From Escherichia coli (lineage in GTDB: Bacteria > Pseudomonadota > Gammaproteobacteria > Enterobacterales > Enterobacteriaceae): a DNA stretch of 64,000 nucleotides. The position numbers were made by a program, and so were the translations under genes. Below are positions 2,905-63,414 of this stretch, piece by piece. The stretch lies in NCBI RefSeq assembly GCF_003334405.1, contig NZ_QOWM01000003.1; one strand, written 5' to 3'. A model generated the notes under the pieces. It searched no databases. It saw nothing but the letters and a program-made list of their open reading frames with translations, and was not told where the DNA came from. How positions within the stretch are numbered: the stretch's first letter is position 1; every line of letters begins with the position of its first letter.

Positions 2905-4796
<1,892 letters not shown>

Positions 4797-6457: not shown

Positions 6458-7180
6458 ATGCAGGATAAGGATTTTTTCAGCTGGCGTCGCACGATGCTGT
6501 TGCGTTTTCAGAGGATGGAGGCCGCAGAAGAGGTCTACCATGAAATAGAGTTTCAGGCTCAGCAGCTGGAGTACGATTACTATTCGTTATGTGTTCGCCA
6601 CCCGGTACCATTCACGCGACCTAAAGTGGCTTTCTACACCAATTACCCTGAGGCGTGGGTTAGTTATTATCAGGCAAAAAACTTTCTCGCAATTGATCCG
6701 GTGCTGAACCCTGAAAACTTTAGTCAGGGCCATTTAATGTGGAATGATGACTTATTCAGCGAAGCACAGCCGTTATGGGAAGCCGCGCGCGCACATGGTT
6801 TACGCCGCGGTGTCACTCAGTATTTAATGCTGCCAAACCGGGCGCTGGGCTTTTTGTCCTTTTCCCGTAGCAGCGCGCGCGAAATACCCATTCTTAGTGA
6901 TGAACTGCAATTAAAAATGCAGTTACTGGTGCGCGAAAGTCTGATGGCTCTGATGCGTTTAAATGATGAAATAGTGATGACGCCAGAGATGAATTTCAGC
7001 AAGCGCGAAAAAGAAATTTTGAAATGGACGGCGGAAGGGAAGACATCAGCAGAGATAGCGATGATTTTGTCAATCTCTGAGAATACGGTCAATTTCCACC
7101 AGAAAAACATGCAGAAAAAAATTAATGCACCAAATAAGACGCAGGTTGCCTGTTACGCGGCCGCTACTGGCTTAATTTGA
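6458..7180 (+). CDS. sdiA: LuxR-type quorum-sensing regulator SdiA (240 aa)
   Basis: Recognised N-terminus MQDKDFFSWRR; C-terminal LuxR HTH; track ORF begins 4 codons upstream at a TTG. Confidence 0.93.
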   Translation: MQDKDFFSWRRTMLLRFQRMEAAEEVYHEIEFQAQQLEYDYYSLCVRHPVPFTRPKVAFYTNYPEAWVSYYQAKNFLAIDPVLNPENFSQGHLMWNDDLFSEAQPLWEAARAHGLRRGVTQYLMLPNRALGFLSFSRSSAREIPILSDELQLKMQLLVRESLMALMRLNDEIVMTPEMNFSKREKEILKWTAEGKTSAEIAMILSISENTVNFHQKNMQKKINAPNKTQVACYAAATGLI

Positions 7181-23535: not shown

Positions 23536-24037
23536 AACCTGTTCCTTATTCTGTGAACTTCAGGTGACATTAAAGCTTTACTCCTAATGGAGAAACGACG
23601 CAATCCCAACTCGGTCAAACAGGTAAATATTAGTCTGATTATTAGTAAAGACAATTAATCAATCACTCCCGGTGATCATATAATTTCAAATGTAATTATA
23701 AGAAAATAGTGTACTGATTCTCCGCATTAAACAAGTGGTTAATATATGTAAAACATTTCATTAACATTAAGTTGATTGTTGCCTTTCTTTGTATTTAATT
23801 AGTTTGTTGTGCGGTAAGTGTCTGTTTAAAAATAGCTTATCTGGTATTGCATGAAAGTGATTATTTATAGCAGATGATTATTTACGGTGAGTTATTTTGA
23901 CTGTGCGCAACATCCCATTTCGATTATTCCTGTTTCATTTTTGCTTGCTAGCGTAGCGAAAAACTTTTTAACAGATTGAAATACACCCAAAACAAAAGTA
24001 TGACTTATACATTTATGTTAAGTAATTGAGTGTTTTG

Positions 24038-29676: not shown

Positions 29677-29702
29677 TTCTCCCGATTTCCTCAATTGAAA
29701 TG

Positions 29703-29732
29703 AACCCGATGATCTGCGCATCGGGTTTTTTA
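29703..29732 (+). terminator. rho-independent terminator after cheW
   Basis: 7-bp stem CCCGATG/CATCGGG followed by TTTTTT. Confidence 0.7.
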
Positions 29733-29762
29733 TTTCAATTTCGCGGCGGGTGGCATCAGCAA

Positions 29763-29789
29763 TAAAGTTTCCCCCCTCCTTGCCGATAA
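29763..29789 (+). promoter_or_regulatory. sigma28 promoter of the tar-tap-cheRBYZ operon
   Basis: Perfect TAAA(29763-29766)-N15-GCCGATAA(29782-29789), about 30 nt upstream of the tar ATG. Confidence 0.7.
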
Positions 29790-29820: not shown

Positions 29821-31479
29821 ATGATTAACCGTATCCGCGTAGTCACGCTGTTGGTAATGGTGCTGGGGGTATTCGCACTGTTACAGCTTATTTCCGGCAG
29901 TCTGTTTTTTTCTTCCCTTCACCATAGCCAGAAGAGCTTTGTGGTTTCCAATCAATTACGGGAACAGCAGGGCGAGCTGACGTCAACCTGGGATTTAATG
30001 CTGCAAACGCGCATTAACCTGAGTCGTTCAGCGGTACGGATGATGATGGATTCCTCCAATCAACAAAGTAACGCCAAAGTTGAATTGCTCGATAGCGCCA
30101 GGAAAACATTGGCGCAGGCAGCGACGCATTATAAAAAATTCAAAAGCATGGCACCGTTACCTGAAATGGTCGCTACCAGTCGTAATATTGATGAAAAATA
30201 TAAAAACTATTACACAGCGTTAACTGAACTGATTGATTATCTAGATTATGGCAATACTGGAGCTTATTTCGCTCAGCCAACCCAGGGAATGCAAAATGCA
30301 ATGGGCGAAGCGTTTGCTCAGTACGCCCTCAGCAGTGAAAAACTGTATCGCGATATCGTCACTGACAACGCAGATGATTACCGATTTGCCCAGTGGCAAC
30401 TGGCGGTTATCGCGCTGGTGGTATTGATTCTGCTGGTGGCGTGGTACGGCATTCGCCGTATGTTGCTTACTCCGCTGGCAAAAATTATTGCTCACATTCG
30501 CGAAATCGCCGGTGGTAACCTGGCGAATACCCTGACCATTGACGGGCGCAGTGAAATGGGCGACCTGGCGCAGAGCGTTTCACATATGCAACGCTCTTTG
30601 ACTGACACCGTCACTCATGTCCGCGAAGGTTCAGATGCCATCTATGCCGGTACCCGTGAAATTGCGGCGGGCAACACCGATCTTTCCTCCCGTACTGAAC
30701 AGCAGGCATCCGCGCTGGAAGAAACTGCCGCCAGCATGGAGCAGCTCACCGCGACAGTGAAGCAAAACGCCGATAACGCCCGCCAGGCCTCGCAACTGGC
30801 GCAAAGTGCCTCCGACACCGCCCAGCACGGCGGCAAAGTGGTGGATGGCGTAGTGAAAACGATGCATGAGATCGCCGATAGTTCGAAGAAAATTGCCGAC
30901 ATTATCAGCGTTATCGACGGTATTGCCTTCCAGACTAATATCCTCGCGCTGAATGCCGCGGTTGAAGCCGCGCGTGCGGGTGAACAGGGCCGTGGTTTTG
31001 CCGTGGTGGCGGGTGAAGTGCGTAATCTTGCCAGTCGCAGCGCCCAGGCGGCAAAAGAGATCAAAGCCCTCATTGAAGACTCCGTCTCACGCGTTGATAC
31101 CGGTTCGGTGCTGGTCGAAAGCGCCGGGGAAACAATGAACAATATCGTCAATGCTGTCACTCGCGTGACTGACATTATGGGCGAGATTGCATCGGCATCG
31201 GATGAACAGAGCCGTGGCATCGATCAAGTCGCATTGGCGGTTTCGGAAATGGATCGCGTCACGCAACAGAACGCATCGCTGGTGCAGGAATCAGCTGCCG
31301 CCGCCGCTGCGCTGGAAGAACAGGCGAGTCGTTTAACGCAAGCAGTTTCCGCGTTCCGTCTGGCAGCCAGCCCACTCACCAATAAACCGCAAACACCATC
31401 CCGTCCTGCCAGTGAGCAACCACCGGCTCAGCCACGACTGCGAATTGCTGAACAAGATCCAAACTGGGAAACATTTTGA
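29821..31479 (+). CDS. tar: methyl-accepting chemotaxis protein II Tar (553 aa)
   Basis: Recognised N-terminus [21 protein letters not shown]; C-terminal NWETF pentapeptide; track ORF N-extended to 29800. Confidence 0.95.
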
Positions 31480-36120: not shown

Positions 36121-36190
36121 TATTGCCTGATGTGGCGTGACCACGTCATATCAGGCGGTCTGATAAGGCGATGACGCCGCATCCGACAAA
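36121..36190. repeat. REP (BIME) elements between cheZ and flhB
   Basis: GCCTGATG...CATATCAGGC palindrome and CTGATAAGGCGATGACGCCGCATCCGAC, typical REP sequences. Confidence 0.6.
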
Positions 36191-40558: not shown

Positions 40559-40713
40559 CCGTTATCGTTTCCCTGGGGCCGGATATTACGCTTCTGGCCT
40601 CTTATCCAACAGTGAGAAAACAATGGCATGTCCATTTTCAGAATACATTTAGATGGCAATAAAAAAGCCTGATCGGCTAACCCTGATCAGGCTTCACTCT
40701 CACGAAAAATCGA

Positions 40714-43233: not shown

Positions 43234-44069
<836 letters not shown>

Positions 44070-45501: not shown

Positions 45502-47931
45502 ATGACATTAACAAGACGTGAATTTATTAAACACAGCGGTATTGCCGCTGGAGCGCTGGTGGTGACATCGGCAGCACCGCTCCCCGCATGGGCAGAAGAG
45601 AAGGGCGGTAAAATCCTCACCGCGGGACGTTGGGGAGCGATGAACGTAGAAGTGAAGGACGGCAAGATTGTTTCTTCAACAGGCGCGCTGGCGAAAACCA
45701 TACCGAATTCCTTACAGTCTACGGCGGCGGATCAGGTACACACCACGGCGCGTATTCAGCATCCGATGGTGAGAAAAAGCTATCTCGATAATCCACTGCA
45801 ACCGGCGAAAGGTCGTGGCGAAGATACCTATGTACAGGTGAGCTGGGAACAGGCATTAAAACTGATTCATGAGCAACATGATCGTATTCGTAAAGCTAAC
45901 GGACCATCGGCCATTTTTGCCGGATCTTACGGCTGGCGCTCTTCTGGCGTGTTGCATAAAGCGCAAACCTTACTGCAACGTTATATGAACCTGGCGGGCG
46001 GTTATTCCGGGCATAGCGGCGATTATTCAACCGGGGCAGCACAGGTGATCATGCCGCATGTGGTCGGTTCTGTAGAGGTGTATGAACAGCAGACCTCCTG
46101 GCCGCTGATTCTGGAAAACAGCCAGGTTGTGGTGCTGTGGGGAATGAACCCGCTGAATACCTTAAAAATTGCCTGGAGCAGTACCGATGAGCAAGGGCTG
46201 GAATACTTCCATCAGCTGAAAAAATCTGGCAAACCAGTGATTGCCATTGATCCTATCCGCTCCGAAACCATCGAATTCTTTGACGATAATGCCACCTAGA
46301 TCGCGCCGAATATGGGCACCGACGTGGCACTGATGTTAGGGATTGCGCATACCCTGATGACACAAGGCAAACACGATAAAGTGTTCCTTGAAAAATACAC
46401 TACCGGGTATCCGCAGTTTGAAGAGTATCTGATAGGTAAGAGCGATAATACGCCGAAGAGCGCGGTCTGGGCGGCGGAAATTACTGGCGTACCGGAAGCG
46501 CAGATAGTCAAACTCGCTGAACTGATGGCGGCGAATCGCACAATGCTGATGGCAGGCTGGGGAATTCAGCGCCAGCAATATGGTGAACAGAAACACTGGA
46601 TGCTGGTGACGCTGGCGGCGATGTTAGGGCAGATTGGTACACCGGGCGGCGGTTTTGGTTTCTCTTATCATTACTCCAACGGTGGCAACCCGACGCGTGT
46701 TGGCGGCGTGCTGCCGGAAATGTCTGCGGCGATTGCCGGACATGCCAGCGAGGCCGCTGATGATGGCGGAATGACGGCGATTCCTGTTGCCCGTATCGTC
46801 GATGCGCTGGAAAATCCTGGCGGCAAATATCAGCATAACGGTAAAGAACAAACGTATCCGAATATCAAAATGATCTGGTGGGCGGGTGGCGGTAACTTTA
46901 CCCATCACCAGGATACTAATCGTCTGATTAAAGCATGGCAGAAACCGGAGATGATCGTCGTTTCTGAATGCTACTGGACCGCAGCAGCCAAACACGCAGA
47001 TATCGTATTACCGATCACCACATCGTTTGAGCGCAATGACTTGACGATGACCGGTGATTACAGCAACCAGCATATTGTGCCGATGAAGCAGGCTGTTGCT
47101 CCGCAATTTGAAGCGCGTAACGATTTTGACGTGTTTGCCGATCTTGCGGAATTACTCAAACCTGGCGGAAAAGAGATCTATACCGAAGGTAAAGATGAAA
47201 TGGCGTGGCTGAAATTTTTCTATGATGCCGCTCAGAAAGGTGCCCGTGCGCAACGCGTCACTATGCCAATGTTTAATGCCTTCTGGCAGCAAAATAAACT
47301 GATCGAAATGCGCCGCAGCGAGAAGAACGAACAGTACGTTCGTTATGGTGATTTCCGCGCCGATCCGGTGAAAAATGCGCTGGGTACGCCAAGCGGCAAA
47401 ATTGAAATCTATTCAAAAACGTTGGAAAAATTTGGCTATAAGGATTGCCCGGCACACCCAACCTGACTGGCTCCTGATGAATGGAAAGGTACCGCCGACG
47501 AGAAGCAGTTACAGCTTCTGACCGCACATCCGGCACACCGTTTACACAGTCAGCTTAACTATGCGGAACTGCGTAAAAAATATGCGATCGCCGATCGTGA
47601 ACCAATCACTATTCACACCGAAGATGCTGCACGCTTTGGTATTGCGAATGGCGATCTGGTGCGTGTCTGGAACAAACGTGGTCAGATTTTGACAGGCGCG
47701 GTGGTGACTGACGGGATCAAAAAAGGCGTGGTATGCGTGCATGAAGGTGCATGGCCAGATCTGGAAAATGGCTTGTGTAAAAACGGCAGTGCGAACGTGT
47801 TAACGGCGGATATCCCCAGCTCGCAGCTGGCAAATGCCTGTGCCGGTAACTCAGCGTTGGTGTATATCGAAAAATATACGGGCAATGCACCGAAGTTAAC
47901 GGCGTTTGATCAGCCAGCTGTTCAGGCGTAA
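45502..47931 (+). pseudogene. torZ: TMAO/N-oxide reductase TorZ (BisZ) interrupted by two in-frame stop codons
   Basis: Tat signal [17 protein letters not shown] at the start; three same-frame track ORFs (45484-46299, 46312-47466, 47659-47931) are collinear and total 809 codons; internal TAG at 46297-46299 and TGA at 47464-47466. Confidence 0.8.
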
Positions 47932-47940
47932 GACGTGAAT

Positions 47941-47960
47941 AGCGCCCGGAAACGGGCGCT
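47941..47960. other. perfect hairpin with GAAA tetraloop immediately after torZ
   Basis: AGCGCCCG-GAAA-CGGGCGCT, 8-bp GC-rich stem, no U-tract. Confidence 0.4.
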
Positions 47961-47983
47961 GAGGTTATGCAAACGTAAAGCTG

Positions 47984-48082
47984 CCTGATGCGCTATGCTT
48001 ATCAGGCCTACATAGTCCCTGCAATATATTGAATTAGCAAGGTTTTGTAGGCCGGATAAGGCGTTCACGCCGCATCCGGCAG
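47984..48082. repeat. BIME with two REP elements between torZ and cmoB
   Basis: GCCTGATGCGCTATGCTTATCAGGCCTAC and GTAGGCCGGATAAGGCGTTCACGCCGCATCCGGCAG. Confidence 0.6.
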
Positions 48083-48095
48083 TAATACCAGACCT

Positions 48096-50243
<2,148 letters not shown>

Positions 50244-58163: not shown

Positions 58164-58164
58164 G

Positions 58165-58295
58165 TCGGATTGGTCGCTCGCGCCGCATCCGGCACTGGCA
58201 ATATGCCTGATGCGACGCTGTTCGCGTCTTACCAGGACTACCAGAGATACCGAACCGTAGGTCGGATAAGGCGCTCGCGCCGCATCCGACAAATG
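58165..58295. repeat. BIME with three REP elements downstream of ruvB
   Basis: Three REP copies in alternating orientation: GTCGGATTGGTCGCTCGCGCCGCATCCGGCAC, GCCTGATGCGACGCTGTTCGCGTCTTACCAGGACTAC, GTAGGTCGGATAAGGCGCTCGCGCCGCATCCGAC. Confidence 0.65.
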
Positions 58296-62315: not shown

Positions 62316-63287
62316 ATGGAAACGAAAAAAAATAATAGCGAATACATTCCTGAGTTTGATAAATCCTTTCGCCACCCGCGCTACTGGGGAGCATGGCTGG
62401 GCGTAGCAGCGATGGCGGGTATCGCTTTAACGCCGCCAAAGTTCCGTGATCCCATTCTGGCACGGCTGGGACGTTTTGCCGGACGACTGGGAAAAAGCTC
62501 ACGCCGTCGTGCGTTAATCAATCTGTCGCTCTGCTTTCCAGAACGTAGTGAAGCTGAACGCGAAGCGATTGTTGATGAGATGTTTGCCACCGCGCCGCAA
62601 GCGATGGCAATGATGGCTGAGTTGGCAATACGCGGGCCGGAGAAAATTCAGCCGCGCGTTGACTGGCAAGGGCTGGAGATCATCGAAGAGATGCGGCGTA
62701 ATAACGAGAAAGTTATCTTTCTGGTGCCGCACGGTTGGGCCGTCGATATTCCTGCCATGCTGATGGCCTCGCAAGGGCAGAAAATGGCAGCGATGTTCCA
62801 TAATCAGGGCAACCCGGTTTTTGATTATGTCTGGAACACGGTGCGTCGTCGCTTTGGCGGTCGTCTGCATGCGAGAAATGACGGTATTAAACCATTCATC
62901 CAGTCGGTACGTCAGGGGTACTGGGGATATTATTTACCCGATCAGGATCATGGCCCAGAGCACAGCGAATTTGTGGATTTCTTTGCCACCTATAAAGCGA
63001 CGTTGCCCGCGATTGGTCGTTTGATGAAAGTGTGCCGTGCGCGCGTTGTACCGCTGTTTCCGATTTATGATGGCAAGACGCATCGTCTGACGATTCAGGT
63101 GCGCCCACCGATGGATGATCTGTTAGAGGCGGATGATCATACGATTGCGCGGCGGATGAATGAAGAAGTCGAGATTTTTGTTGGTCCGCGACCAGAACAA
63201 TACACCTGGATACTAAAATTGCTGAAAACTCGCAAACCGGGCGAAATCCAGCCGTATAAGCGCAAAGATCTTTATCCCATCAAATAA
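62316..63287 (+). CDS. lpxM: lipid A myristoyltransferase LpxM (MsbB), 323 aa
   Basis: Translation [30 protein letters not shown]... matches LpxM. Confidence 0.95.
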
Positions 63288-63291
63288 AAAA

Positions 63292-63310
63292 GCCTCTCGC
63301 GAGGAGAGGC
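63292..63310 (+). terminator. hairpin after lpxM (weak terminator candidate)
   Basis: 7-bp stem GCCTCTC/GAGAGGC directly after the stop; short U-tract only. Confidence 0.4.
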
Positions 63311-63374
63311 CTTCGCCTGATGATAAGTTCAAGTTTGCTTCAGAATATTCGAAATCTGTTGAACTATCATTGAA

Positions 63375-63414
63375 CTGTAGGCCGGATGTGGCGTTTTCGC
63401 CGCATCCGGCAACG
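63375..63414. repeat. REP element between lpxM and pykA
   Basis: CTGTAGGCCGGATGTGGCGTTTTCGCCGCATCCGGCAACG. Confidence 0.6.

Follow-up and report, generated by a model that had tools for sequence, protein, structure and literature searches.

A hairpin and a strain-variable BIME-1 in the spacer where the torYZ and cmoAB operons of Escherichia coli converge

The window analyzed here, a stretch of 64,000 nucleotides of the E. coli chromosome, is the reverse complement of approximately 1.9385 to 2.0025 Mb of MG1655, with which it is collinear; an MG1655 position is obtained by subtracting the window position from 2002509. Within this window, the torYZ operon on the plus strand and the cmoAB operon on the minus strand converge on a spacer that is bounded by the TAA stop codons of torZ (positions 47929 to 47931, plus strand) and cmoB (48096 to 48098, minus strand). 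Between positions 47850 and 48150, the window and K-12-type genomes are 100% identical. The strain itself is not K-12: positions 24010 to 64000 share 99.97% identity with K-12, positions 1356 to 24017 are just 99.07% identical to MG1655, and the initial 6 kb of the window are 100% identical to strains 537-20 and KK19-02. We noticed several further features outside the spacer. The fliC gene (approximately 174 to 1350) is only about 86% identical to that of MG1655, indicating a different H type; the IS1 element upstream of flhD in MG1655 is missing here, and the point concerned (24010 to 24017) is the boundary between the 99.97% and 99.07% segments; and tar lacks 3 bp, in frame, at position 30423 in comparison with the MG1655 gene. 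Rfam matches at gathering level were obtained for MicL at 43761 to 44068 (plus strand), inside and after cutC and just upstream of torY, and for C0465 at 29696 to 29773 (minus strand), both as expected for a K-12-like region.

The torZ gene (45502 to 47931, plus strand) is a pseudogene in this strain. It differs from the MG1655 gene by two G-to-A nonsense changes, at 46298 (TGG to TAG) and at 47466 (TGG to TGA), and because of these two premature stops the description of torZ as disrupted, made earlier in a sequence-only reading of this DNA, is correct. The gene holds 4 of the 11 single-nucleotide differences found in the 40 kb that are otherwise 99.97% identical to K-12. Among complete E. coli genomes, none has this torZ segment at 100% identity or carries both of its nonsense alleles, the best match being 99.8%. 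A 48-amino-acid open reading frame with a GTG start (47922 to 48068, minus strand) is made up almost entirely of hairpin and repeat sequence from the spacer and was set aside as probably not being a gene.

Nine nucleotides (GACGTGAAT) separate the torZ stop codon from a GC-rich stem-loop at positions 47941 to 47960, with the first stem arm, AGCGCCCG (47941 to 47948), beginning at the tenth nucleotide past the stop. The loop is GAAA (47949 to 47952), and the second arm is CGGGCGCT (47953 to 47960). The 8-bp stem is perfect and consists of seven G:C pairs and one A:T pair; thus, of the "perfect 8-bp GC stem" with a GAAA loop 10 nt after the torZ stop that had been described, the perfection and the position hold, while the stem is not purely GC. 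The element can form in RNA from either strand, the loop being UUUC on the minus strand. With short flanks, its predicted RNA folding energy is -20.9 kcal/mol on the plus strand and -16.0 kcal/mol on the minus strand, and none of 200 shuffled sequences folded as stably. For one and the same stem, predicted values are approximately -17.7 kcal/mol in the GAAA orientation versus approximately -15.7 kcal/mol in the UUUC orientation.

The remainder of the spacer is occupied largely by a pair of REP sequences (palindromic units) that form an extragenic inverted repeat between the torZ and cmoB stop codons, with a linker lying between their GTAGG/CCTAC ends. This layout of a Z1 REP, an L linker, and an inverted Y REP is that of BIME-1, which also goes by the names RIP and RIB. 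These elements are the subject of work by Gilson, Bachellier, and Hofnung, by Boccard and Prentki (1993), and by Oppenheim (1993). Judged by its sequence, the segment from 47967 to 48081 is a canonical BIME-1. The Z1-type REP GCCTGATGCGCTATGCTTATCAGGCCTAC, at 47983 to 48011 on the plus strand, has 2 mismatches out of 30 to the Z1 reference, and the Y-type REP TGCCGGATGCGGCGTGAACGCCTTATCCGGCCTAC, which reads on the minus strand at 48047 to 48081, has 1 mismatch out of 35 to the Y reference (PMC11208160). The two REPs that the sequence-only reading had placed after the hairpin are therefore present, in inverted orientation, and its more general assignment to a BIME, a common extragenic repeat of E. 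coli, can be sharpened to BIME-1; REPs recur at a median of at least 39 places per genome and were found in all 5,426 complete E. coli genomes surveyed. Upstream of the Z1 REP lies an external motif, ATGCAAACGTAAAGCT (47967 to 47982, plus strand), which resembles TGATGACAAACGCAAAACT of the copies in the entD-fepA and dacB-obgE spacers, and a match from another locus in the genome comparison begins at exactly 47967. Those two copies differ from the one in the window in having an external motif on the Y side as well (..AAAGTGCGCTTTGTTCAT); the window copy lacks this motif and has GTAATACCAGAC at the corresponding position. The 35-nt linker (48012 to 48046, readable on either strand) aligns with that of the entD-fepA copy and contains, at 48022 to 48034 on the minus strand, a site ATTCAATATATTG that agrees with the IHF consensus WATCAANNNNTTR at 12 of 13 positions. 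Presumably, IHF would bind the linker DNA, by analogy with other members of the RIB/RIP family. In predicted minimum-free-energy RNA structures, positions 47980 to 48012 pair with positions 48046 to 48082, with energies of -47.8 and -50.2 kcal/mol and z-scores of about -5. The RefSeq feature table of MG1655 used here lists no REP features.

Comparison of the spacer among related genomes separates the hairpin from the repeat. In two BIME-less E. coli loci, L002 and L003, the spacer is only 34 to 35 nt long and consists of the torZ TAA, 9 nt, a 20-nt hairpin identical to that of the window, AATCT or AAATTT, and the cmoB stop codon. Together with a third BIME-less locus, L011, these show an unchanged hairpin with varying flanks, and in the repeat-free alleles the distance from the hairpin is 9 nt to the torZ stop and 5 to 6 nt to the cmoB stop. 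Since BIME-less alleles keep the hairpin, it is an element separate from the BIME, and the possibility that it forms part of the BIME was ruled out. An empty allele of the ST131 type has AAAAA before the hairpin and AAATTTTT after it, and a terminator scan was positive for this allele on both strands; an empty allele of the 19A14 type was not called in the same scan. In E. coli SCPM-O-B-8794 (locus L008, approximately 6560 to 6752), a BIME-1 with a different linker is present in the opposite orientation. The same orientation, with a linker that again differs from that of the K-12 type, is found in Escherichia whittamii (locus L016, approximately 3300 to 3510, where the minus strand of the locus is the torZ sense), and there the hairpin and its AAATTT tail occur on both sides of the insert, as direct repeats of approximately 25 nt. 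A scan for exact matches to the hairpin, using one genome per species, recovered four Escherichia loci, all of them this locus, with an empty site in E. coli E69 and a K-12-type BIME in Escherichia sp. E1V33; it did not recover Escherichia albertii, E. fergusonii, or E. marmotae, and its other 22 matches were in unrelated taxa, at roughly chance level. As the invariance of the hairpin in an exact-match scan is circular, independent support for it is provided by the loci that BLAST had identified (L002 to L004, L033, and L034).

The K-12-type allele and the opposite-orientation allele of SCPM-O-B-8794 share a non-repeat flank, GTAATACC(A/T)GA(A)C. We considered whether the K-12 allele might be a simple in situ inversion of the opposite-orientation allele and ruled this out, as the linkers and flanks differ and one flank (GTAATACC[A/T]GA..) is common to both. 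Because the hairpin does not change among alleles in which the BIME is missing, is present, or is reversed with another linker, the order of events seems to be that the hairpin came first and the BIME later, at least twice. The sequences compared thus argue that the hairpin is the older element and that BIMEs were acquired subsequently, on two or more occasions.

The frequencies of these states were determined in 5,426 complete E. coli genomes. An intact K-12-type BIME allele is present in 3,884 to 3,885 of these (72%), and in a further 436 (8%) the Z1 REP is interrupted by IS621, on different cmoB allele backgrounds. The remaining genomes, approximately 1,100 (about 20%), have empty sites of two sequence types, for which the counts of 613 and 660 may overlap. 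In the interrupted loci L004, L033, and L034, the insertion point is ..GGCCT^AC.., with junctions that read ...ATCAGGCCT/TGTATT...AGTATCT/ACATAG..., and these coincide exactly with the natural target of this bridge-RNA recombinase element, ATCAGGCCTAC, which has a CT core (PMC11208160). The copy of the target in the window, at 48001 to 48011 on the plus strand, is intact and unoccupied. As the spacer is found in three common states, namely, empty, with BIME-1, and with BIME-1 carrying IS621, it makes a handy strain marker, and the earlier suggestion that these repeats mark strain identity is borne out by the proportions given above. The same three states provide a natural series in which the effect of BIME-1 on the expression of the convergent genes could be tested.

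Information on RNA 3' ends is available from K-12 MG1655, whose sequence is identical to that of the window between 47850 and 48150. Term-seq data from Adams et al. (2021) contain a curated 3' end at MG1655 position 1954572 on the plus strand, which was found in two datasets and has the context ...AGCGCCCGTTTCCGGGCGCTATTC^ACG (PMC7815308, supplementary file 1). This end corresponds to position 47937 on the minus strand of the window; in the cmoB sense, in which the loop is UUUC, it follows the hairpin stem by 4 nt. The curated K-12 lists hold no second end in the spacer and none inside the BIME or at the REPs (PMC7815308). Because the mapped end falls just past the hairpin, the BIME would lie inside the cmoAB 3' untranslated region, and it would be the hairpin that sets the end of the RNA. 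With this, the proposal that the REPs matter mainly as mRNA 3' stabilizers finds no confirmation at this locus. The hairpin had also been tied to torZ and to the BIME; it does adjoin the torZ stop, but it is a separate element and the 3'-end data fall on the cmoAB strand.

A region of Rho-dependent termination has been assigned to MG1655 position 1954822 on the plus strand, approximately 250 nt beyond the 3' end (PMC7815308, supplementary file 2). The ratio of downstream to upstream coverage at this region was 15/211 in untreated cells and 155/266 after bicyclomycin treatment, giving a Rho score of 8.2 (p = 7e-19) (PMC7815308). The position corresponds to approximately 47687 on the minus strand of the window, opposite the sense strand of the 3' portion of torZ, and presumably represents the true stop for cmoAB read-through. 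As Rho scores are computed over 800-nt windows, the actual release site could be at any point in the vicinity of the hairpin or the BIME. A terminator scan of the window allele gave no call on either strand, the tails being GAGGTTATGC on the plus strand and ATTCACGTCT on the minus strand, neither with a U-tract. An RNA end 4 nt after the stem is compatible with weak intrinsic termination and with exonucleolytic trimming alike.

Taken together, these data are likely to be explained by a joint account in which an ancestral hairpin shared by torYZ and cmoAB was joined later by a polymorphic BIME-1, and in which the cmoAB RNA is released by Rho and trimmed back to the hairpin. In the ancestral state, the stem-loop at 47941 to 47960 would have been common to the convergent torYZ (plus strand) and cmoAB (minus strand) operons. 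In the ST131-type empty allele, with an A-tract on one side of the stem and a T-tract on the other, it would be a compact element that terminates transcription intrinsically in both directions; in the K-12 allele, which is also that of the window, both U-tracts have degraded. The BIME-1 would have been inserted secondarily, into the gap that separates the hairpin from the cmoB stop codon, and transcription of cmoAB would now traverse the whole of the BIME-1 and the hairpin. Transcripts would be released largely by Rho within antisense torZ, after which 3' exonucleases would trim the RNA back to the hairpin, leaving a stable 3' end. At the RNA level, the BIME-1 would form a long imperfect hairpin within a cmoAB 3' untranslated region of 159 nt; at the DNA level, it would presumably be bound by IHF, like other RIPs, and would offer an IS621 target in its Z1 REP. 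The hairpin appears to be the conserved functional element of this locus, at the 3' end of cmoAB, a tRNA modification operon, and the BIME-1 appears to be a strain-variable passenger.

It is conceivable, although we hold it to be distinctly less probable, that the hairpin serves as the Rho-independent terminator of torYZ and as a 3' stabilizer, with a stabilizing GNRA (GAAA) tetraloop and with the REPs reinforcing its effect. This role would be compatible with the joint account. The proximity of the hairpin to the torZ stop and the greater predicted stability of the GAAA orientation fit such a function, as does the plus-strand tail of the ST131-type empty allele, with which the hairpin scans as a terminator. 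In the window, however, the plus-strand tail lacks a U-tract and the scan was negative, and with two premature stops in torZ little translated transcript would be expected to reach the hairpin. The K-12 Term-seq lists (PMC7815308) also contain no torZ-sense 3' end, but torYZ is poorly expressed under the mapping conditions, and the lack of such an end is thus uninformative. Given the missing U-tract and the premature stops, it is doubtful whether the hairpin serves the torZ mRNA of this strain.

Less likely again is a primary effect on translation. By analogy with REP-mediated stalling, a REP or hairpin that follows a stop codon by fewer than 16 nt might stall the terminating ribosome and lower the output of cmoB or torZ; the figure of "fewer than 16 nt" is the rule of Liang et al. 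(2015) in the summarized form in which it appears in a passage of PMC12306157. In the cmoB RNA, the stem formed by the REP pair, taken as a REPIN, begins 13 nt past the stop codon and the stem of the Y REP begins 15 nt past it, and on the other strand the hairpin lies 9 nt past the torZ stop, all of which fall below this figure. However, the cmoB distance is borderline and torZ is a pseudogene here, and stalling would be at best an added effect that leaves the origin and the polymorphism of the elements unexplained.

We also entertained the idea that BIME-1 elements have landed repeatedly in the gap of approximately 5 nt by which the hairpin is separated from the cmoB stop. This seems to us improbable. 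If the hairpin duplication in E. whittamii were indeed the footprint of an insertion, it would suggest that terminator hairpins, or the sites adjoining them, are where REP doublets insert, with duplication of the hairpin, and it would give a clue to how REPs and BIMEs spread.

Even smaller is the chance that the segment from 48004 to 48046 on the minus strand is a small RNA gene. It matches the Rfam family ES036 (RF02751, CssrF) with a covariance-model score of 45.5 bits, above the gathering threshold of 37.6 bits, but the 43-nt model corresponds in effect to the repeated L linker of BIME-1 and a REP tail. The model also recognizes BIME-1 copies at unrelated loci, whatever their orientation; its matches include the linker of the entD-fepA copy and the linkers of the other Escherichia alleles. 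CssrF was reported from the dacB/yhbZ spacer, and this spacer itself contains a BIME-1. In addition, no promoter-like site was found within 47500 to 48500, and the curated K-12 ends include none inside the BIME. An sRNA gene of this family was hence ruled out, and since the model matches other BIME-1 linkers, the match marks a repeat family; ES036 "sRNA" matches are best read as repeat derived, which is useful for the annotation of other genomes. Identity with naRNA4 (RF02564, CssrE), whose model describes a two-hairpin Z2-Y unit, was ruled out as well, as the score lies below the gathering threshold (39.7 versus 59.5 bits) and the likeness is confined to the first hairpin of the model, which aligns to the Y REP. 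Finally, although the hairpin is small, the notion that it and the palindromes are meaningless chance inverted repeats can practically be dismissed, as four perfect GC-rich hairpins with stems of 8 bp or more occur in the 64-kb window, compared with an expectation of 0.77 from Markov-1 random sequence, the hairpin is unchanged across alleles with differing flanks, REPs occupy about 40 or more places per genome in 5,426 of 5,426 genomes, folding z-scores are about -5, and in K-12 an RNA 3' end has been mapped 4 nt beyond the stem.

The elements of the spacer resemble several known systems. Like other members of the BIME-1/RIP/RIB family, the repeat combines a Z1 REP and an inverted Y REP with a linker of about 35 nt that carries an IHF-consensus-like site, and it occupies the same kind of extragenic place, at the 3' ends of convergent units, with a presence that varies between strains. 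It also resembles REPINs, which are hairpin-forming REP doublets (Bertels and Rainey) that are mobilized by RAYT/TnpA-REP. As in these, the inverted REPs are predicted to fold together into a single long imperfect hairpin, and an otherwise conserved site carries the element in some genomes and not in others, with both orientations represented in different lineages, which is consistent with mobility. However, the boundaries of the insertion in the window are unclean, because the extra non-repeat bases GTAATACCAGAC accompany the insert. The hairpin, as a single GC-rich stem-loop between convergent stop codons, is similar to the bidirectional intrinsic terminators of E. coli. The ST131-type allele fits this class, with its A-tract, its T-tract, and its call on both strands, whereas the K-12 allele differs in its degraded U-tracts and in the data that point to a large Rho-dependent component.

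A recent preprint describes REP325 of the yjdMN operon as a partly Rho-dependent terminator and mRNA stabilizer (bioRxiv 10.64898/2026.03.23.713779). The two cases have in common a REP element in a 3' untranslated region with Rho-dependent termination nearby. REP325 is, however, a 12-unit array of the BIME-2 type inside an operon, and the window has a single BIME-1, with the 3' end at a non-REP hairpin beyond it. The same work places approximately 60% of REPs between convergent genes and argues that REPs are context-dependent terminators and stabilizers and that convergent pairs containing them have higher expression; the preprint contains nothing specific to the torZ-cmoB spacer (bioRxiv 10.64898/2026.03.23.713779).

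Since all of the elements described here belong to known classes, the spacer represents biology that is already known, and its significance extends little beyond annotation. Only the history of the site, with its several alleles, stands out as unusual, and this includes the E. whittamii allele in which the hairpin is duplicated.

REP clusters similar to the one after torZ had also been proposed to follow cheZ, ruvB, and lpxM. REPs are indeed present at all three sites. Beginning 8 nt past the cheZ stop codon, two abutting inverted REPs occupy 36125 to 36187, and ruvB is followed by three alternating REPs (58164 to 58290); at lpxM, there is one REP (63378 to 63412) rather than a cluster. None of these sites has an L/IHF linker, as the only ES036 match in the window is that at 48004 to 48046. 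A near-perfect REP-like palindrome, GCCTGATCGGCTAACCCTGATCAGGC, which is not a canonical REP, was noticed at 40667 to 40692, just after argS and overlapping the small open reading frame yecV of MG1655. Adjoining the lpxM stop codon is a separate GC-rich terminator hairpin (approximately 63292 to 63310) with a T-tract on the pykA-sense strand, and the single REP is located between this hairpin and the stop codon of pykA. The lpxM/pykA spacer (63285 to 63412) thus has the same layout as the cmoB/torZ spacer, with a gene, a REP, a hairpin, and the stop codon of the convergent gene, and the sequence between its hairpin and its REP (GCCTGATGATAAG...) looks like a degenerate remnant of a BIME-1.
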